Origin: a phage
DNA length: 64,000 nucleotides
Reading direction: 5' to 3' (one strand)
Sequence record: PZ445527.1
Made by a program: the position numbers and the translations under genes
The notes under the pieces: generated by a model
Database searches by the model: none
Told to the model about the DNA's origin: nothing
Seen by the model: only the letters and a program-made list of their open reading frames with translations
Shown here: positions 15,535 to 22,626 of the stretch, one piece after another
How positions within the stretch are numbered: the first letter of the stretch is position 1
How the letters are laid out: each line of letters begins with the position of its first letter

Positions 15535-15610
15535 TGGAGCGGCTAGAGGGAATCGAACCCTACTCAGCGAGGCTTGGAAGGCCTGCGACACAACCCGTGT
15601 GCTTAACCGC
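15535..15610 (-). tRNA. tRNA-Gly(UCC)
   Basis: Manual cloverleaf: acceptor GCGGTTA/TAGCCGC, anticodon loop CTTCCAA, T loop TTCGATT, encoded CCA. One T-stem mismatch and a short D loop. Confidence 0.7.
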
Positions 15611-15618
15611 TTATTGTT

Positions 15619-15692
15619 TGGCAGGGGATATTGGATTTGAACCAATGATCTCGACTTCAAAGGCCGTTGTGCTAACCGTTACACTACTCTCC
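15619..15692 (-). tRNA. tRNA-Gln(UUG)
   Basis: T arm CATTGG-TTCAAAT-CCAAT, anticodon loop CTTTGAA, encoded CCA. The acceptor stem has two A:C mismatches. Confidence 0.55.
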
Positions 15693-15699
15693 AATTGTT

Positions 15700-15775
15700 T
15701 GGCTGGAGTGCCTGATTCAATCCCAGGCACCTTCGGAGTCAGAGGCCGACGACTTGACAATTGATCTACACCTCA
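15700..15775 (-). tRNA. tRNA-Gln(CUG)-like
   Basis: 76 nt fits standard numbering: acceptor TGAGGTG/CACTCCA, anticodon loop CTCTGAC, encoded CCA. The T loop GATTGAA is atypical. Confidence 0.5.
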
Positions 15776-15784
15776 AGAATACTA

Positions 15785-16021
15785 TTAACTAGATGCTGGT
15801 TCTGCTGGCTGAGATACAGCAGGCTGTTCTAATGTATCTGGTGCTGATACAGAGAAAAGAGCTTGTAATGCTGCAATATCACGCTCGTAAGTTTCAATAC
15901 GAGTAGTAAGAGTATCTACCATCTGTTTATGATAGGCTAAGTTATTCTGAGATTCATCTCGAAGGGTTTGCAGTTCTGCAAGACGTGTTAACATAATTTC
16001 ACTAATTAAAGCATTACTCAT
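15785..16021 (-). CDS. hypothetical coiled-coil protein (78 aa)
   Basis: Minus-strand ORF overlapping the upstream ORF by 8 nt. Confidence 0.5.
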   Translation of the reverse strand: MSNALISEIMLTRLAELQTLRDESQNNLAYHKQMVDTLTTRIETYERDIAALQALFSVSAPDTLEQPAVSQPAEPASS

Positions 16022-16211
16022 TTGTTTCTCCTAAATTTTCCGGTTCTTCTAAACGTTTGCCTTCATGATCTACTCGAATAACTCCGCATCCTTCGCAAAT
16101 CACAACTGCACCATAACCTTCTTTGACTTCAGCTTCTGTAATCAAACCAGAAAGATCACCAGTATCTCTGCCCCACATATCAATGGAGCATTGTTTGCAG
16201 AAATCAGCCAT
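16014..16211 (-). CDS. zinc-ribbon protein (65 aa)
   Basis: CxxC...CxxC pairs (CKQC, CEGC). Confidence 0.5.
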   Translation of the reverse strand: MADFCKQCSIDMWGRDTGDLSGLITEAEVKEGYGAVVICEGCGVIRVDHEGKRLEEPENLGETNE

Positions 16212-16236
16212 ATTTTATTTCCTATTTAAGTTAATT

Positions 16237-16313
16237 TGGGGTGGCTAGTGGAACTCGAATCCACATAGGCCTGATTCACAATCAGGATCATTAACCAATT
16301 ATGATATAGCCAC
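16237..16313 (-). tRNA. tRNA-His(GUG)
   Basis: Clean cloverleaf: GTGGCTA/TAGCCAC, D stem TCAT/ATGA, CCTGA-TTGTGAA-TCAGG, GTGGA-TTCGAGT-TCCAC, encoded CCA. Confidence 0.9.
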
Positions 16314-16424
16314 AATTGAAAACTCGCAGGGTTAGCGAAACCATCCTCAATTAGCATGTTCTAGAATACTAATCAAGTTATCTCCTATTGCACGCAGCTC
16401 AAGACGAGTACGAATTTTCAATTG

Positions 16425-16531
16425 TGGCGGCTCTCAGAAACTCTTCTATTCTAGCCTCAGAAGCTTACCCCCGAACGCATGTCGGGAAAGTCTTTCCAAG
16501 CGCATCAAATAGCACCGTTACACTTTGAGCC
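16425..16531 (-). ncRNA. 107-nt structured RNA with a tRNA-like GGCTC/GAGCC terminal stem and encoded CCA
   Basis: No cloverleaf can be drawn. Internal hairpins GGAAA-GAC-TTTCC and CTTCT-11 nt-AGAAG. It sits in tRNA-gene spacing between tRNA-His and tRNA-Ser. Confidence 0.4.
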
Positions 16532-16679
16532 ATTGATGTATCAAGGAATAGAAGGACTTGAACCTTCATGAGTTAGACCATTTAACTCAACCGCTTTTTA
16601 GGGTATATTTCTAGGAGTGGATGTTCCTAGTAAACCTATTCGGCAGTCCCGTCTACCAATTCCGGCATATTCCAAGATT

Positions 16680-16774
16680 TGGAGGTAGGTAAGGGGATCG
16701 AACCATTACACCGTATCACTACGGTCAACCGATTTCAAGTCGGAGTCCATCGCCAGCCGTTGGATTGACCTACC
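16680..16774 (-). tRNA. tRNA-Ser(UGA), class II
   Basis: Acceptor GGTAGGT/ACCTACC, anticodon loop CTTGAAA, variable arm ACCGTA-GTGA-TACGGT, T loop TTCGATC, encoded CCA. Confidence 0.85.
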
Positions 16775-16786
16775 TTATAAATTGTT

Positions 16787-16871
16787 TGGTGGGTTAGGAG
16801 AGACTCGAACTCTCACGCACTTAAGCAAGGGCTTCTAAGACCCTCGTGGCTACCAATTACACCACTAACCC
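16787..16871 (-). tRNA. tRNA-Leu(UAG), class II
   Basis: Acceptor GGGTTAG/CTAACCC, 3-bp D stem, AGGGT-CTTAGAA-GCCCT, GAGAG-TTCGAGT-CTCTC, encoded CCA. Confidence 0.9.
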
Positions 16872-16877
16872 CTAATT

Positions 16878-16952
16878 TGGTGGACAGTAGGAGAGTCGAA
16901 CTCCTCACTCCTGAGTGCAAGTCAGGTATTTTCCCAGATAAACTAACCGCCC
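16878..16952 (-). tRNA. tRNA-Ala(UGC)
   Basis: Acceptor GGGCGGT/ACTGTCC (with G:U pairs), CCTGA-CTTGCAC-TCAGG, AGGAG-TTCGACT-CTCCT, encoded CCA. Confidence 0.9.
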
Positions 16953-17191
16953 AAATTCTTTAATTTACTAAGGCTATTAGCTCGGCGTAACTACAGCACC
17001 TTCGCTTCAAGCGGAAGGAACCGCGTCATCTCGCAAACCCAATACACTATTCAGTTGCCGCTGAATCTAGTGGACTAATCTAGAACTTCTCCCGAGTCGT
17101 AGGGATCGTGCTTTTTGGCAGCCAGTCCTAGGTCGAGCTAATACCTTAGTGAATTATGATGAGGATTTCTCCCATATCAATTTATATAAAT

Positions 17192-17220
17192 ATTATAACA
17201 AGAAATTAATCATCAAGCAA
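17192..17220 (-). promoter_or_regulatory. T5-type early promoter (TTGCTT-17-TATAAT) driving a leader RNA and the Ala-Leu-Ser tRNA cluster
   Basis: Hexamers and spacer read directly. No long ORF lies downstream, only a 9-codon mini-ORF and structured RNA. Confidence 0.75.
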
Positions 17221-17238
17221 TTGAGTTTTTCTTGAAAT

Positions 17239-17314
17239 TGGTAGCGGGTTCCAGTACTGCCCTGGACTTACTTAGCTTATGAGACTAAGAAGAACTCTAT
17301 GCCTTCCACCCGCA
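17239..17314 (-). tRNA. tRNA-Met/Ile2(CAU)
   Basis: 76 nt: acceptor (T)GCGGGT/ACCCGC(T), TTAGT-CTCATAA-GCTAA, T stem TCCAG/CTGGA with a non-canonical loop GGCAGTA, encoded CCA. Confidence 0.6.
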
Positions 17315-17320
17315 ATTGTT

Positions 17321-17445
17321 TGGTTATTCTAGACAGGATTCGAACCTGTTATCACTTGTGCGGACTTACGAGAACCATTCTTTCACTCGAATCGAACGAG
17401 CTTCTGCCCTAGCCAAGCTGGTTTCCCCATCAACCACGCTAGAAT
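17321..17445 (-). ncRNA. oversized (about 121-125 nt) tRNA-like gene with a nested extra T-arm
   Basis: Perfect acceptor ATTCTAG/CTAGAAT, D arm TGGT-10 nt-ACCA and T arm ACAGG-TTCGAAT-CCTGT enclose about 67 nt, including a second CTCG-TTCGATT-CGAG hairpin. Confidence 0.35.
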
Positions 17446-17567
17446 GTTTGATTGTTTTCAGTGCAAGAGTCCGAGTCTTGGACACGACCGTTTCGCAAGT
17501 ACATAGGCAGCTTATCATGAGTCAGCACTTCCGAATTGCTAGCCCCGTGTTCTGCACTGAAATTTTA

Positions 17568-17915
17568 TTAGTTTAACCGTAAAGTATTATCTAATTCACC
17601 ATTAATTGTTCGGCATTCCTCTGGAATTGCTGGTGTGGCCTTGTATTCCCACCACTCAGCACCATCATATTCCCCACGTTCTAGCCAAGTTCCGTCGGCA
17701 AACCATACATTACCATAAAGTAATTGTCCACCGTATCCAGAATCATACTCAAAGTCTAGGTTATCAAGAAAATCCTCAATATCTTCTTCTGTATAGCCTA
17801 AAGGTAATACCCAAACTTTTTTATCCCCATAATACCCGAATTCTATTTTAATACACTTAATTTTAGAATTGGTATTTTTTAAGGCAAGTAACAACTCTTC
17901 TTTAGCATTACGCAT
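17568..17915 (-). CDS. hypothetical protein (115 aa)
   Basis: Minus-strand ORF between tRNA genes; acidic and Trp/Tyr-rich. Confidence 0.55.
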   Translation of the reverse strand: MRNAKEELLLALKNTNSKIKCIKIEFGYYGDKKVWVLPLGYTEEDIEDFLDNLDFEYDSGYGGQLLYGNVWFADGTWLERGEYDGAEWWEYKATPAIPEECRTINGELDNTLRLN

Positions 17916-17940
17916 AGTATATTCTCATACTGAATTAATT

Positions 17941-18017
17941 TGGCGCGACTGATGGGATTTGAACCCACATTCCCTCCCGTGATAGGGGAGTACCATTACC
18001 AAGCCAGCCACGGTCGC
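17941..18017 (-). tRNA. tRNA-Asp-type with anticodon AUC (A34)
   Basis: Acceptor GCGACCG/CAGTCGC, CTCCC-CTATCAC-GGGAG, GTGGG-TTCAAAT-CCCAT, encoded CCA. The loop differs from the Asp CTGTCAC loop only at position 34. Confidence 0.7.
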
Positions 18018-18026
18018 ATAATTTAT

Positions 18027-18212
18027 TTACTCAGCTTTGAGTTTTTCAATAGCTGCATTAAGTTCTTTAAGAAACTCTTTTCGTACATTAAGACGATTGA
18101 GACTTACTAGTATATCATGTTTAAGTTCTTCGATGTATTTCTTCTCAACTTCAATATTGTTGATAGTGCTATCACGATGAACTTCTAGCTGCGCAATCAC
18201 ATTCTTGGACAT
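18027..18212 (-). CDS. hypothetical coiled-coil protein (61 aa)
   Basis: Minus-strand ORF between tRNA genes. Confidence 0.45.
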   Translation of the reverse strand: MSKNVIAQLEVHRDSTINNIEVEKKYIEELKHDILVSLNRLNVRKEFLKELNAAIEKLKAE

Positions 18213-18314
18213 GCTTGTTTCCTCAGTTATTAATGAAAATGGTATCTGTGGCTGAATTAGATGTCAGCAATGATAGCTGGTTGGCTACCGGTTTACTTAA
18301 CTCTACACAGAATT

Positions 18315-18397
18315 TGGCGGGCCGTGTAGGATTCGAACCTACGTTGTCTTTCGACACGGATTAACAATCCGCCGCCAAACCGCTTGGCTAACGACCC
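18315..18397 (-). tRNA. tRNA-Asn(GUU) with a long variable region (83 nt)
   Basis: Acceptor GGGTCGT/ACGGCCC, D arm GCCA-AGCGGTT-TGGC, GCGGA-TTGTTAA-TCCGT, 13-nt variable region GTCGAAAGACAAC, GTAGG-TTCGAAT-CCTAC, encoded CCA. Confidence 0.75.
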
Positions 18398-18552
18398 TAA
18401 AAAATTTATATTGCTGACTAGGGTTTTCACCTAGACGGAGTTAGCACCGTAGCGTGTAGCGGCATACCTCTCCAAACCGTGCCTCATCTTTCAATTACGG
18501 AGACAGTGTTCCTACGCGTGCCTGAATTGATTTAACAATTCTTTCAGCAAAT

Positions 18553-18628
18553 TGGACGACCGCATGAGGATTGAACTCACATAAAAAGGATTTGCAATCC
18601 TTCGCCTAAGCCATTCAGCCAACGGTCG
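18553..18628 (-). tRNA. tRNA-Cys(GCA)
   Basis: Acceptor CGACCGT/GCGGTCG, AAGGA-TTGCAAA-TCCTT, GTGAG-TTCAATC-CTCAT, encoded CCA. The 5' 14 nt overlap the end of ORF 18615..18806. Confidence 0.85.
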
Positions 18629-18806
18629 ATTTATCTTGTTTTTCGAGATCTTCAAACTCTAAATCATTGAAGTTCCCTAGAGTACGGGTATAGAACCCAT
18701 CCCCTGCGTCATAGCCTGATTTACCACAATCACACATTTTAAATTCGCGCAGGTGTGTGAAAACATGTTCAGAACCACAACACTTAAATCTAACTAATCG
18801 TTTCAT
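18615..18806 (-). CDS. zinc-finger protein (63 aa)
   Basis: First ORF after promoter 18835..18863, with CC...CDC cysteine pairs. The stop lies inside tRNA-Cys. Confidence 0.55.
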   Translation of the reverse strand: MKRLVRFKCCGSEHVFTHLREFKMCDCGKSGYDAGDGFYTRTLGNFNDLEFEDLEKQDKSTVG

Positions 18807-18834
18807 TAGCTTCTCCAGTTCAATTTATGTAATT

Positions 18835-18863
18835 ATTATATAGAACTTTTGGGAACTAAGCAA
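18835..18863 (-). promoter_or_regulatory. T5-type early promoter (TTGCTT-17-TATAAT)
   Basis: Hexamers and 17-nt spacer read directly. Confidence 0.75.
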
Positions 18864-19128
18864 CTACATTTTTTAAGAATTTGATGCCTTTCTTTTTCTT
18901 CTTATATTTCCACGTTAATGGATTCTGTCGATTATGAACGCTTGAGATCTTTGTCTCGTCAAAGTTCTTCAATATCATGTAATCACAAGATAATTGTTCT
19001 AGTGGAATGTGATCACCGTCAAAAGCGTATACATAAGGCTGTTGACTAGCACGATAATGATAGACTTTGTTAATTCTACGTTTCAGCGACTTATCCGCGC
19101 AGTAAATAAAGAAGTTTTAAGGGTGCAT
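18856..19128 (-). pseudogene. ORF interrupted by an in-frame TAA after codon 3
   Basis: AAGGAG-ATGCTG-ATG CAC CCT TAA, then 86 further sense codons open in the same frame (NFFIYCADKSLKRRINKVYHYRASQQPYVYAFDGDH...) before the terminal TAG. No alternative start follows the stop. Confidence 0.5.
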
Positions 19129-19145
19129 CAGCATCTCCTTCAATT

Positions 19146-19229
19146 TGGTGCATCGTGCTGGATTTGAACCACCAACCCCGAAGGGCACGGATTTACAGAC
19201 CGCTGCAATAGCCATTCTGCCAACGATGC
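19146..19229 (-). tRNA. tRNA-Tyr(GUA), class II
   Basis: Perfect acceptor GCATCGT/ACGATGC, anticodon loop CTGTAAA, variable arm CCC-TTCG-GGG, T loop TTCAAAT, encoded CCA. Confidence 0.85.
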
Positions 19230-19292
19230 ACATTTAAAAGTATTCAAATACTAGTTTAAACACTTTTAAATATGTTTCCAAATTAGATAACT

Positions 19293-19321
19293 ATTATACC
19301 AAGTTTTAAGGCACTGAGCAA
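19293..19321 (-). promoter_or_regulatory. T5-type early promoter (TTGCTC-17-TATAAT) upstream of tRNA-Tyr
   Basis: Hexamers and spacer read directly. The -35 box is embedded in the 3' arm of a 12-bp hairpin (GCACTGAGCAAG...). Confidence 0.65.
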
Positions 19322-19357
19322 GTCAGATTTTGAAGAACTTGCTCAGTGCTGTATTAG

Positions 19358-19642
19358 TTAGTCGAACTTAGGAGTGACAGATAAGGAGAACGGAAGTTCA
19401 AAAACTTCTTCACCCTCATTACTAACGGTAACTACACGACCTTTAAGTTCAGACATTAAAATATCAATATCAGCTTTTGCATCTGGAGCCATGCCAGCTT
19501 CAATACATTTAGCTTTAACTTCCGGTAAAAGCTCTACGTTATAGAGATAGAGCCACTCAATCTCACCTTCCCAGTCTTCCCAGTCTTCCCAGGATTTGCA
19601 GATTGCACTTTCAATACCAGTTGCTACAACACGATTTTGCAT
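19358..19642 (-). CDS. hypothetical acidic protein (94 aa)
   Basis: First ORF after promoter 19673..19702, with RBS GAAGGAG. Confidence 0.6.
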   Translation of the reverse strand: MQNRVVATGIESAICKSWEDWEDWEGEIEWLYLYNVELLPEVKAKCIEAGMAPDAKADIDILMSELKGRVVTVSNEGEEVFELPFSLSVTPKFD

Positions 19643-19672
19643 TCGTTAACTCCTTCATCAATTTATATAACT

Positions 19673-19702
19673 ATTATACCAGAAATTTAAAGCAAAAGGC
19701 AA
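19673..19702 (-). promoter_or_regulatory. T5-type early promoter (TTGCCT-18-TATAAT)
   Basis: Hexamers read directly; 18-nt spacer. Confidence 0.65.
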
Positions 19703-19732
19703 GTACATTTTTAAAAATTCTGTTTGGAGGAG

Positions 19733-19939
19733 CTAAACTCCAGATTCTTCTGCCAAGTCTAGACTAATAAGAGTTATAGCCATAATTGCTGCACCGTGTT
19801 CTTTTTCTCCGGTGTTTTTAGCAGAGTCTATAATATCCTTAATCTGTTCGTAATAACTTTTTACTTCTTGTTCAATGCCTGCCTCGGCTATCATGCCTTT
19901 AGTCATGAGTCGTTGCATGGTAATTTCAGTATTAGCCAT
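19733..19939 (-). CDS. hypothetical protein (68 aa)
   Basis: Minus-strand ORF with an ATGGCTAA overlap with the upstream small ORF. Confidence 0.5.
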   Translation of the reverse strand: MANTEITMQRLMTKGMIAEAGIEQEVKSYYEQIKDIIDSAKNTGEKEHGAAIMAITLISLDLAEESGV

Positions 19940-20099
19940 GTTGTTTCTCCAGTTTCATTTTTAATAGTTTACAAATGAAATCAACGTCTTCATCCGTGCC
20001 TAGATCTCTATCTTCAAGGGTTGCCTTGAAATTTTTTGTTAGTTCCATAAGAATAACTTCCCTGGAACGACGTGTTGGCGGGGGTGGATGTCTATACAT
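19932..20099 (-). CDS. hypothetical small protein (55 aa, not in the ORF track)
   Basis: AAGGAAATAAG-ATG directly downstream of tRNA-Met. The frame is open to the overlap with the next gene. Confidence 0.4.
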   Translation of the reverse strand: MYRHPPPPTRRSREVILMELTKNFKATLEDRDLGTDEDVDFICKLLKMKLEKQHG

Positions 20100-20114
20100 C
20101 TTATTTCCTTAATT

Positions 20115-20189
20115 TGGTGGGTCGGAGGAGAATCTAACTCCTACTCGTTAGCTTATGAGGCCACCGCTTTAACTTTAAGCTACCGACCC
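20115..20189 (-). tRNA. tRNA-Met(CAU)
   Basis: Acceptor GGGTCGG/CCGACCC, D arm GCTT/AAGC, anticodon loop CTCATAA, AGGAG-TTAGATT-CTCCT, encoded CCA. Confidence 0.75.
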
Positions 20190-20195
20190 TATGTT

Positions 20196-20284
20196 TGGCG
20201 GAAGAAGTGGGAATCGAACCCACAAGGCTATATTTCAAACCGACAGATTAGCAATCTGCTGCAATACCGTTATGCTATTCTTCC
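20196..20284 (-). tRNA. tRNA-Ser(GCU), class II
   Basis: Perfect acceptor GGAAGAA/TTCTTCC, GCAGA-TTGCTAA-TCTGT, long variable arm, GTGGG-TTCGATT-CCCAC, encoded CCA. Confidence 0.85.
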
Positions 20285-20298
20285 GAATTTATAAATAT

Positions 20299-20327
20299 AT
20301 TATATTAGAAATTTAGCTTCATAGCAA
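20299..20327 (-). promoter_or_regulatory. T5-type early promoter (TTGCTA-17-TATAAT) for the Ser/Met tRNA pair
   Basis: Hexamers read directly. The -35 box and part of the spacer lie inside the last codons of ORF 20305..20823. Confidence 0.7.
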
Positions 20328-20823
20328 GAAAATTTTTCAAGTTTTCGGTAGACATCTCATCCACATCTACAGGAGAAACAAATCCATTTAATTGTCTAGC
20401 AAATTTTTTACCAGCAGGATCATTATCCCCAACAGCTACCAATTTAAAAGGTAGTAATTTCAATTGCTTTAATAGCGCTTTTCCTGGAGAAGAACCCAAC
20501 ATTGCCAAGGCTGGATAACCAGCGTTATGTAACGCAACTGCCTTAAATACAGATTCAGCAATCAATACCACTTTTTCATCTCCATTGAGAGTTTCTAGTC
20601 CCCATACACACTGTGTAGTAGAATAAGTAAAATATCTAGCTTCAAAGGGGCACTTACCATGACCTTTTGGAGCAGAAGGATTATAAGTCTGATAGCCTCT
20701 CAACATCCCAGAGAAGTCATACAATGGGACTGTTAGCCATCCTTCCGGGCTTAACCAGCAATGATATTTATCTGTATCAAACCCTCTAGATAAGAGATGT
20801 TCTGTTAGTTCATCAACAGTCAT
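20305..20823 (-). CDS. Toprim-domain protein (172 aa)
   Basis: Toprim-like signature: conserved Glu (LIAESVFKA) and DxD (AVGDNDPAGKKFA). Confidence 0.6.
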   Translation of the reverse strand: MTVDELTEHLLSRGFDTDKYHCWLSPEGWLTVPLYDFSGMLRGYQTYNPSAPKGHGKCPFEARYFTYSTTQCVWGLETLNGDEKVVLIAESVFKAVALHNAGYPALAMLGSSPGKALLKQLKLLPFKLVAVGDNDPAGKKFARQLNGFVSPVDVDEMSTENLKNFLAMKLNF

Positions 20824-20859
20824 ATTTGATCCCCTAGTTAGTTGTATAAATACATTATA

Positions 20860-20896
20860 CAGAAAAGCCCTGCGCTCTCCAGTGAACGCAGGGCTT
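20860..20896 (-). terminator. rho-independent terminator
   Basis: AGCCCTGCG-12 nt-CGCAGGGCT stem followed by TTTTCTG, then a TATAAT -10 box. Confidence 0.8.
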
Positions 20897-20919
20897 ACTT
20901 CGAATATTACGTGTGGGTA

Positions 20920-21867
20920 TTACTTGTTACGCATATCCATAATCATTTGGCCATCGTAACCAGTGCCAACCACAGTCTGCGGTACACCACCTTGATACTT
21001 CTGAGCACGAATCATTTCAACTTCTAGTTGCTTCCAGCGAATCATCTCAGGAGTAATGGTACGTTGCAGAGCGGCGTTAGCTTCAGCTTCTTTCTTAGCT
21101 GCGTACAGTTTAGCATCTGCATCACGTTCGTTTGCAATAGCTTGGTTGTTACGAGCTTCACGATCTGCTTCTGCTTGTTTAACCTTCTGCTGTGCTTCTT
21201 GTTCAACACGAGCCAACTCAGCTTTCGCAGCATTAACTTGTTCTTCACGAACTTTGGTATTCTGTACCTGTTCCATGATTACAGGCGGCAAAGTAATATC
21301 CTGAAGGAACACTTGCTTAACTGTGTAACCATAAGGGCGTGCATACTCTTCAACTTCCTGTTGAATTGCAGTTTGCAATTGAGCCTGAATTTTAGCATCA
21401 AACAAATCTTGTGCTTTAGGTACAGACTTACCAAACTCACGAATAGTAGACAGTAATTTTTCAGTTACATACTTGTCTAGTGCCTGATCCTGAGTACCTG
21501 CATTAATACGGTTAATCGGTGCCTTAGAACCATCAAACTGCAACATAACAGTCAGGTCAACAGTGGATTTAAACTTATCCTGACTAGGAACCTGAAGTTT
21601 ATCTAATTTTACAGCAATATCTTTTGTACTGAAAGTATCGAAAGATGCAAACGGGTTTACAATATGGAAACCAGGTAATACTGGATTAGGGTCTACTTTA
21701 CCAAGAAATGTTTGGGTTTTAACCGTACCATCAGAAACAATAGTATATGAATTAAAAGCTAGGATTAAACCTGCTAAACCAACTACAGCACCAATACCCC
21801 AACGTTTAATAGTACGGATTACTTTCTGCTCAGAAGTCAGTTCTTTCATATTTTTAGTAGCAAACAT
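20920..21867 (-). CDS. SPFH/band-7 (prohibitin/HflC-like) membrane protein (315 aa)
   Basis: N-terminal TM helix, an SPFH-like core and a long Ala/Glu/Gln coiled coil. Strong E. coli-type codon bias. Confidence 0.7.
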   Translation of the reverse strand: MFATKNMKELTSEQKVIRTIKRWGIGAVVGLAGLILAFNSYTIVSDGTVKTQTFLGKVDPNPVLPGFHIVNPFASFDTFSTKDIAVKLDKLQVPSQDKFKSTVDLTVMLQFDGSKAPINRINAGTQDQALDKYVTEKLLSTIREFGKSVPKAQDLFDAKIQAQLQTAIQQEVEEYARPYGYTVKQVFLQDITLPPVIMEQVQNTKVREEQVNAAKAELARVEQEAQQKVKQAEADREARNNQAIANERDADAKLYAAKKEAEANAALQRTITPEMIRWKQLEVEMIRAQKYQGGVPQTVVGTGYDGQMIMDMRNK

Positions 21868-21901
21868 ATATTTCCTTTGTTTTAGTTACAGTTAATAAAA
21901 T

Positions 21902-21976
21902 TGGCCGAGGTGACAGGATTCGAACCTGCATAAAGGAATTTAGAAGACTCCTGCCTCTCCCTTAGACTACACCCCG
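21902..21976 (-). tRNA. tRNA-Arg(UCU)
   Basis: Acceptor CGGGGTG/CACCTCG, GGAGT-CTTCTAA-ATTCC, GCAGG-TTCGAAT-CCTGT, encoded CCA. Confidence 0.85.
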
Positions 21977-22626
21977 TTTAAGTATTTTTAAGAACTCTCG
22001 TAAAAACTCTTAAAAATACAGACGATACCGGGAGAGTCATAAGTCTCACTCATTAAGTATTTCAAGACAAAATACAGTAACGTCTATTATTTTCCAGTTT
22101 AAGTCAGGGTGACTTAGTGGTTATGTCCTGCGGTATATTGAGGACTCGGTTAGGCTTGGGGTCATGACTTCCCGCCTTTTGCTGCTACTCAACAGGAGTT
22201 ATCGCGAATTACCTGTGCTATTGTGCACCATTAGTGACATCTCTCATGCCAGCATTTCCCACTTTGTGGATAGCTTGAAAAACTACTCCGATACGGAGAA
22301 AGAACTTCACTATCCTAGAATACCTTCTAAAGTTCTTCTTTAGCCTGGACATAGTTAAATCGTAATAAAACTATTCAGCAGACCGGTTGGTTAGTCTGGA
22401 ACCAACTACCGCGTGGTTTAGGCAGTGCGCAACTAACCTCGGAAGCTTTTACGTTAAAAGCACCAGTTATCCAGTTCTTACCGACCGTAGGATTCGAACC
22501 TACATCTTCCACCAGTTACGGCTTGATAATACCAATTATACTAGGACGGCAGTGTTACTACATAAGTGATTTCCACACCCCACTATTTATAAATTAGAAA
22601 AGAATTACTCTCTAATTTATGAATAT

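Follow-up and report, generated by a model that had tools for sequence, protein, structure and literature searches.

The tRNA gene examined here lies in a 64,000-nucleotide stretch of phage DNA (sequence record PZ445527.1; hereafter the window, meaning the whole stretch) and encodes an aspartate transfer RNA (tRNA-Asp) whose anticodon reads AUC, i.e. with adenosine rather than guanosine at the wobble position 34 (A34 and G34, respectively). The gene is 77 nt long and occupies positions 17941–18017 on the minus strand, where ARAGORN calls a tRNA-Asp with the anticodon atc. The Rfam tRNA family RF00005 matches the same strand at 17944–18017 in ARAGORN's register (44.5 bits; E = 4.9e-7; gathering score, 29), with model positions 1–71 of 71 covered. 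Two open reading frames (ORFs) on the minus strand flank the gene and serve as synteny anchors: upstream, a 61-aa ORF of the DUF7337 family (18027–18212), which is the equivalent of T5.068 and precedes tRNA-Asp in T5-like phages, and downstream, a 115-aa homologue of T5.067 (17568–17915). The window genome is that of a T5-like Tequintavirus (38.7% G+C), absent as such from the phage collection, whose nearest genomes, HildyBeyeler, HASG4 and EASG3, share ~94% identity over ~85% of a 24-kb query. As both tools agree, an AUC-anticodon tRNA-Asp gene is real at these coordinates, as an earlier note made from the letters of the window had proposed.

Read on the minus strand, the RNA is GCGACCG-UG-GCUG-GCUUGGUAA-UGGU-A-CUCCC-CUAUCAC-GGGAG-GGAAU-GUGGG-UUCAAAU-CCCAU-CAGUCGC-G-CCA. 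The anticodon A34-U35-C36 occupies 17981–17983, with A34 at window position 17983 (T on the plus strand), and the encoded 3′ CCA (17941–17943) is preceded by the discriminator G73 at 17944. All canonical parts of a tRNA are present, including a 5-bp anticodon stem, a 7-nt anticodon loop with U33, a UUC T loop, the discriminator and CCA, the sole exception being the pair C6•A67 in the seven-pair acceptor stem. As in all T5-type tRNA-Asp, only a weak D stem is formed (G•U, C-G, U•G, G•U). The structural details given in the earlier note, namely six of seven acceptor pairs, the CUCCC/GGGAG anticodon stem, the UUCAAAU T loop and the encoded CCA, were borne out, and alignment to relatives confirms that the anticodon loop CUAUCAC departs from the usual Asp loop only in having A for G at position 34.

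The order of the locus, 61-aa DUF7337 ORF, tRNA-Asp and 115-aa ORF, matches that of the tRNAD(GUC) locus in T5, Shivani, BF23 and other phages, and a 361-nt region around the gene (window 17800–18160) is 97–98% identical to Shivani, T5 and BF23. The exact 61-aa DUF7337 protein occurs on many T5-like contigs, with a tRNA-Asp(GUC) gene following it every time; ten additional contigs found in this way all carry G34. A search for a sister genome via the exact 115-aa neighbour protein found no record of that protein. On synteny and identity, we take the window gene to be the ortholog of the phage T5 tRNA-Asp(GUC) gene. Compared with the Shivani/EASG3 type of tRNA-Asp, it is 96.1% identical over 77 nt (74/77), and the only differences are G8 to U, G34 to A and G67 to A.

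To place these three changes, 42 homologues of the tRNA-Asp were compared, drawn from IMG/VR, GenBank phages, ENA, Logan and JGI contigs. G8 and G67 are invariant among them, and G34 is present in 41, the exception being Salmonella phage 5. U8 (window 18010) is unique to the window at an alignment depth of 48, and A67 (window 17950) turns the C6-G67 pair into the C6•A67 mismatch. Other natural variation in T5-type tRNA-Asp falls mostly at position 5 (C/U, with pairing kept), in the variable loop at 44–46 and at T-loop position 57; exceptions are A4G in one contig (L139) and a broken copy with C6A and a 3-nt deletion in another (L083). Judged by this alignment, all three window bases are derived, A34 from G34. 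The wild-type tRNA-Asp of the T5 family is itself non-canonical, having G8 and G14 in place of U8 and A14, C2-G71 where bacterial tRNA-Asp conserves G2-C71, and three G•U pairs in its D stem, and these oddities are conserved in the homologues examined.

The GUC anticodon of the T5-type group, absent from the window copy, is thus found in 41 of the 42 homologues. A broader search of GenBank phage records with a 36-nt query, built from the invariant D- and anticodon-arm positions only, gave the same picture: GUC in 365 of the 366 matching records and A34 in one, AJ604531.1. The comparison with other T5-like phages that the earlier note had suggested therefore returned GUC throughout, with phage 5 as the single exception. 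Longer BLAST queries (59 and 77 nt) missed the phage 5 allele, which was hidden by other polymorphic positions, and the G34 36-mer control has no exact denominator, its identity bands including partial matches to unrelated phages. Elsewhere, the A34 allele had no match in IMG/VR contigs (21-mer; 24 matches for the G34 control), in JGI metagenome contigs (27-mer; 11 for the G34 control) or among 185,579 reference genomes (exact pattern), and literature searches on AJ604531 and on phage tRNA-Asp with A34 turned up no paper.

AJ604531.1 is entitled 'Bacteriophage 5 tRNA gene region' and stems from Salmonella phage 5 (host S. heidelberg). Its tRNAD is annotated with 'codon recognized: GAU' and is likewise called Asp(atc) by ARAGORN. 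The phage 5 allele is of the T5 type (G8, A44, G67), A34 being its sole departure. Twenty-five positions separate the window from phage 5 across a 645-nt region, more than separate each of them from G34 phages (17–18 and 13–14), and A34 is the only state exclusive to the pair. Recent common descent of the two A34 alleles was rejected, because each is nearer to G34 phages over this region. A genome nearly identical to phage 5 was sought in the phage collection and none was found.

Anticodons with A34 other than ACG (non-ACG ANN) made up 12 of 1,499 predicted tRNAs in 160 phage loci. A T-arm pattern scan proved too generic, as it returned 120 unrelated phage tRNA loci, and served only as a background sample for this ANN frequency. 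In bacteria, GtRNAdb lists 695 non-ACG ANN genes among 246,393 tRNAs (Raval et al., bioRxiv 10.64898/2026.05.15.725136). Both counts agree with the rarity that the earlier note had asserted for ANN anticodons besides ACG; in phages such calls are rare, though not unheard of. Another apparent A34 anticodon exists in this very phage family: a tRNA-Ser(act) is called by ARAGORN in BF23, HASG4 and HildyBeyeler. At least for the latter two, the call falls downstream of tRNA-Arg, at the position equivalent to window 22479–22550 (minus strand), where EC105 annotates a 'tRNA-OTHER'. The window itself has a tRNA-like element there that scores 35.5 bits against RF00005, lacks CCA and receives no ARAGORN call.

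One statement of the earlier note did not hold, namely that the cloverleaf is otherwise regular, since C6•A67 and U8 add two more lineage-specific changes, at sites where the relatives do not vary, and the mismatch carries a predicted cost. The predicted cloverleaf energy is −19.6 kcal/mol for the window tRNA and −26.6 kcal/mol for the Shivani type, a cost of ~7 kcal/mol; with only A67 reverted it is −25.8 kcal/mol, so that A67 alone costs ~6 kcal/mol. The minimum-free-energy fold of the window RNA is not the cloverleaf but a slipped helix, 6–13/67–74, which uses U8 and A67 and lies 5 kcal/mol below it (−24.6 kcal/mol). The anticodon hairpin is nonetheless identical in every predicted fold and both tools agree on the register, meaning that no alternative fold shifts the anticodon triplet, an outcome that the earlier note had named as fatal to its proposal. 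When minimum-free-energy folding was compared with shuffles, z-scores were close to zero in both the mutant and the wild type and hence uninformative as a tRNA test; only the evaluated cloverleaf energies were used from this analysis.

The distribution of changes indicates how strongly the gene has been held in place. Among 17 relatives in the 645-nt alignment, variable sites amount to 3.9% of the tRNA-Asp versus 20% of its flanks. Of the five changes specific to the window lineage in the same alignment, three fall within the 77-nt tRNA (Fisher p = 6e-4; binomial by length p = 0.014). If the lineage's rate at third codon positions is taken as a proxy for unconstrained sites, 0.95 changes are expected in 77 nt, with a probability of 0.07 for at least three. 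Because three changes per 77 nt come close to this third-codon-position rate, the tRNA-Asp looks unconstrained rather than accelerated.

Signs of erosion extend beyond this gene. By ARAGORN, the window has just 12 tRNA genes, spread over 15.6–22 kb and all encoded on the minus strand; phage 5 has 22 by the same program, and HildyBeyeler has 27 in its annotation. Missing from the window cluster (15600–22600) are, among others, genes for Ile, Thr, Gly, Val, Lys, Pro, Phe, Trp and Glu, a second Gln, a second Leu and additional Met (CAU) genes. Among those that are left, tRNA-Ser(UGA) (16680–16774, minus strand) carries three lineage-specific changes, including one that leaves a mismatch, U51•C63, at the centre of the T stem; the gene scores below the threshold of the Rfam tRNA family, and the tRNA-Sec model gives it only a weak match. 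In tRNA-Cys (18553–18628, minus strand), the T loop reads UUCAAUC versus UUCAAAU in 19 relatives, with adjacent changes at positions 59–60, and tRNA-His also has lineage-specific T-loop changes. Between tRNA-Cys and tRNA-Tyr, a conserved 90-aa ORF (18856–19128, minus strand), 97% identical to its homologues T5.071 and HildyBeyeler bas33_0099, is interrupted at codon 4 by a GAA-to-TAA change (~19117–19119), leaving a 40-aa remnant ORF.

In other members of the subfamily, the Markadamsvirinae, the tRNA-Asp gene has been destroyed altogether. The broken copy in the IMG/VR contig mentioned above (L083, 1480–1600) is called by neither ARAGORN nor Rfam. In phage smaug (L160, 380–480), the 3′ half of tRNA-Asp is replaced and in Kenya-K38 (L159, 370–490) the 5′ half; by their sequence, both loci look like recombination chimeras between tRNA genes. 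Since the gene is destroyed in all three, it is evidently dispensable in the subfamily.

Two further elements of the window cluster deserve mention in their own right. The tRNA-Gln(UUG) call at 15619–15693 (minus strand) matches the T5-type gene exactly through the anticodon but has a wholly different 3′ half from position 38 onwards, with three acceptor mismatches (U1•U72, A4•C69 and G7•A66); the same hybrid allele occurs in two other T5-like contigs (L016 and L020). Between tRNA-His and tRNA-Ser, a weak RF00005 match at 16543–16612 (minus strand; 22.2 bits, E = 0.063) may correspond to one of the T5 'tRNA-like stable RNAs' (RNA1/RNAIII region) that are annotated in phage 5.

We favour the reading, to which we assign a probability of roughly 0.58, that the window carries a weakened tRNA-Asp allele drifting under relaxed purifying selection, in an early phase of tRNA gene decay. 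The AUC allele is probably not a purpose-built GAU decoder: it is a derived mutation in a genome whose tRNA region looks eroded elsewhere too, and this points to drift or decay rather than to a purposeful shift in decoding. G34 is normally modified to queuosine, and G34A removes that base. With its CCA encoded and its flanks conserved, the tRNA-Asp(AUC) is probably still transcribed along with the rest of the tRNA cluster and processed at its ends. The C6•A67 mismatch would destabilise the acceptor stem and, together with U8, permit the competing slipped helix, making poorer folding likely.

Charging by the aspartyl-tRNA synthetase (AspRS) is likely to be poorer as well. Five bases are strong Asp identity determinants, namely G73, G34, U35, C36 and C38, and those in the anticodon are strongest in bacteria (PMC9976931); G34A removes one of the five, the other four being present in the window tRNA. 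Of seven AspRS identity features considered, five are found here: G1-C72 is present, whereas G34 is absent and position 2-71 is C-G rather than the bacterial G2-C71, as in every T5-type tRNA-Asp. Inosine at position 34 (I34), if formed, might mimic G for AspRS.

Whatever fraction became charged would be expected to read GAU. This codon accounts for 76% of Asp codons in the window, a U bias stronger than in any other two-codon box checked, which bears out the preference for GAU noted earlier. If A34 were deaminated to inosine, the tRNA would read both GAU and GAC and risk misreading GAA, a concern of the earlier note that agrees with published reasoning (Raval et al., bioRxiv 10.64898/2026.05.15.725136). 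Loss of the gene would probably be tolerated and selectively close to neutral: as the host tRNA-Asp reads both Asp codons, its loss should cost the phage little.

Several observations pull in the other direction. Three substitutions are a small number, and their excess over the neutral rate is not significant. At 44.5 bits versus 46.7 for a G34 relative, the window gene still has a good RF00005 score, and with G73, U35, C36, C38, G10 and CCA all kept it is not an obvious pseudogene. There is neither a truncation nor a structural disruption that abolishes the cloverleaf, the damage being confined to one acceptor mismatch of the predicted cost given above. A C•A mismatch can be mild, and U8 is the canonical base at its position, so it might aid rather than harm folding. 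The 645-nt comparison with phage 5 further suggests that G34A arose or persisted at least twice, in non-sister lineages. Lastly, an E. coli aspV deletion strain grew better with Asp-tRNA(AUC) supplied on a plasmid (Raval et al., bioRxiv 10.64898/2026.05.15.725136), so a tRNA of this kind can be charged and used. Speaking for decay instead, the same study reports that overexpressed Asp-tRNA(AUC) slows E. coli growth and that bacterial two-codon-box ANN tRNA genes are sporadic and always stand beside a GNN gene. It also reports that overexpressed two-codon-box ANN tRNAs tend to be deleterious and that apparent A-to-I conversion was seen for E. coli Phe-tRNA(AAA) only.

Among the alternatives, the one that survives best holds that A34 is a functional variant, its AUC or IUC anticodon being maintained by selection because it matches the GAU bias or escapes an anticodon nuclease; we give it perhaps one chance in five. 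The occurrence of A34 in two non-sister T5-like lineages speaks for it, as does the fact that no other rare variant at a conserved position turns up twice among the homologues compared, and both the GAU bias and the help that Asp-tRNA(AUC) gives to the aspV deletion strain fit such a function. In the evasion version, UAU in place of UGU at positions 33–35 would confer immunity to nucleases needing G/Q34-U35, such as colicin E5, and would allow Asp translation to continue after cleavage of the host tRNA-Asp. Colicin E5, which cleaves tRNA-Asp, has an absolute requirement for YGU (PMC1635277), and this motif is lost from the window tRNA-Asp. Mutations in the anticodon loop have been proposed as a means by which phage tRNAs evade anticodon nucleases (PMC10264068), and T5 tRNAs are reported to neutralise tRNA-targeting defence by PARIS (PMC11464382, PMC11555353) and by retron systems (PMC11555353).

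However, A34 occurs in only 2 of ~400 T5-like genomes, all of which share the GAU bias and presumably similar hosts, and the other colicin E5 targets encoded in the window (the tRNAs for Tyr, His and Asn) keep G34. In the window, A34 is accompanied by the acceptor mismatch and by erosion of the tRNA region; the replaced base is a strong AspRS determinant (PMC9976931); and two-codon-box ANN tRNAs tend to do harm when overexpressed (Raval et al., bioRxiv 10.64898/2026.05.15.725136). The phage 5 A34 rests on a single record and may be a sequencing or cloning artefact. In its most specific form, this alternative states that G34A is recurrent and positively selected, producing a tRNA-Asp that lacks the G/Q34-U35 motif of colicin E5-class or other Asp-directed nucleases and is usable, unmodified or as I34, for GAU. 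We consider this form doubtful; if true, it would provide a natural, working two-codon-box ANN tRNA.

It is similarly doubtful that the true phage has GUC and that A34, with or without the other two changes, reflects a sequencing, assembly or passage error. Such an error would account for the three-change combination being unique to the window sequence in all collections searched, and no sister genome or record of the exact 115-aa neighbour protein was found against which to check it. The surrounding DNA nevertheless behaves as evolved sequence. Of 23 HildyBeyeler coding sequence queries, 22 have full-length homologues in the window, the remaining one giving only a weak 29% match elsewhere; none of these homologues is frameshifted and one contains a stop. 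Lineage-specific ORF substitutions are distributed 14/7/32 over the three codon positions, and 31 of 43 well-supported lineage-specific substitutions are transitions. To judge from this pattern, the window has evolved under purifying selection and has not simply gathered random errors. The intact conserved genes, the third-codon-position bias and the transition-rich spectrum led us to reject an error-ridden or randomly mutated window, and together they make three errors in a single 77-nt gene unlikely. A34 is, moreover, also found in the independent record of phage 5.

Finally, it is highly improbable that the gene no longer specifies an Asp tRNA, through use of another triplet as anticodon or a switch of identity to another synthetase: the minimum-free-energy fold does differ from the cloverleaf and the strong determinant G34 is lost, but ARAGORN and Infernal agree on the register, all predicted folds share one anticodon hairpin, G73, U35, C36, C38 and G10•U25 are kept at 96% identity to tRNA-Asp(GUC), and no synthetase is known for which an AUC anticodon is the cognate signal.

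Unmodified wobble-A tRNAs are nearly absent from split codon boxes, for reasons that are still debated. A natural Asp(AUC) allele, seen in two T5-like phages, therefore offers a test case for whether such a tRNA is charged, deaminated, tolerated or harmful in a real infection, and it could reveal whether phage tRNAs alter the anticodon itself against tRNA-cleaving defences. On the likelier reading of drift and early decay, it is an example of the base-by-base erosion of a phage tRNA gene. For annotation, a note of caution applies: in T5-like genomes, a call of 'tRNA-Asp(atc)' denotes a derived allele of the GUC gene.

Compared with known systems, the window tRNA is closest to T5 tRNAD(GUC) and its orthologs in Tequintavirus and the Markadamsvirinae (AY543070, Shivani, EASG3, BF23), with which it shares the locus and, for the Shivani/EASG3 type, 74 of 77 bases. 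Common to all are the unusual C2-G71, G10•U25 and G14 as well as the UUCAAAU T loop, G73 and the encoded CCA; AUC, U8 and C6•A67 set the window apart from these GUC homologues, and all three are derived. Salmonella phage 5 tRNAD (AJ604531.1) is the only other record found of A34 in a T5-type tRNA-Asp. Unlike the window, phage 5 keeps G8, G67 and the T5-type A44 together with a full set of ~22–24 tRNAs, and it is not a local sister.

With respect to the wobble base, the bacterial tRNA-Arg(ACG), which is deaminated by TadA, likewise has a gene-encoded A34 in a U33-A34...A37 loop. In the window tRNA, however, positions 35–36 are UC instead of CG, inosine would be expected to misread GAA (Glu), and the allele is not conserved. 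A second parallel is with the phage tRNAs proposed to evade nucleases (van den Berg et al. 2023, PMC10264068), in that the YGU motif recognised by colicin E5 (PMC1635277) has been removed. Yet the evasive changes described in that study typically spare the anticodon and affect other positions of its loop, and tRNAs with a cleavage site inside the anticodon are reported to be ones that phages tend not to encode (PMC10264068), whereas the window tRNA changes the wobble base, does so in an allele known from only two genomes, and probably at a cost in charging.

The nearest analogues of the mutation itself are the sporadic tRNA-ANN genes of bacterial two-codon boxes and the engineered Asp-tRNA(AUC) of E. 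coli (Raval et al., bioRxiv 10.64898/2026.05.15.725136), where G34A likewise converts a split-box GNN tRNA. Like those bacterial genes, the window allele is sporadic and has a GNN isoacceptor alongside, in this case that of the host. By analogy with the E. coli Asp-tRNA(AUC), it might be usable, possibly A-to-I modified and mildly harmful when abundant; it differs in being phage-encoded and in having a non-E. coli backbone with extra destabilising changes. The window allele belongs with the sporadic, derived two-codon-box ANN alleles of bacteria and with the allele of phage 5 in GenBank.

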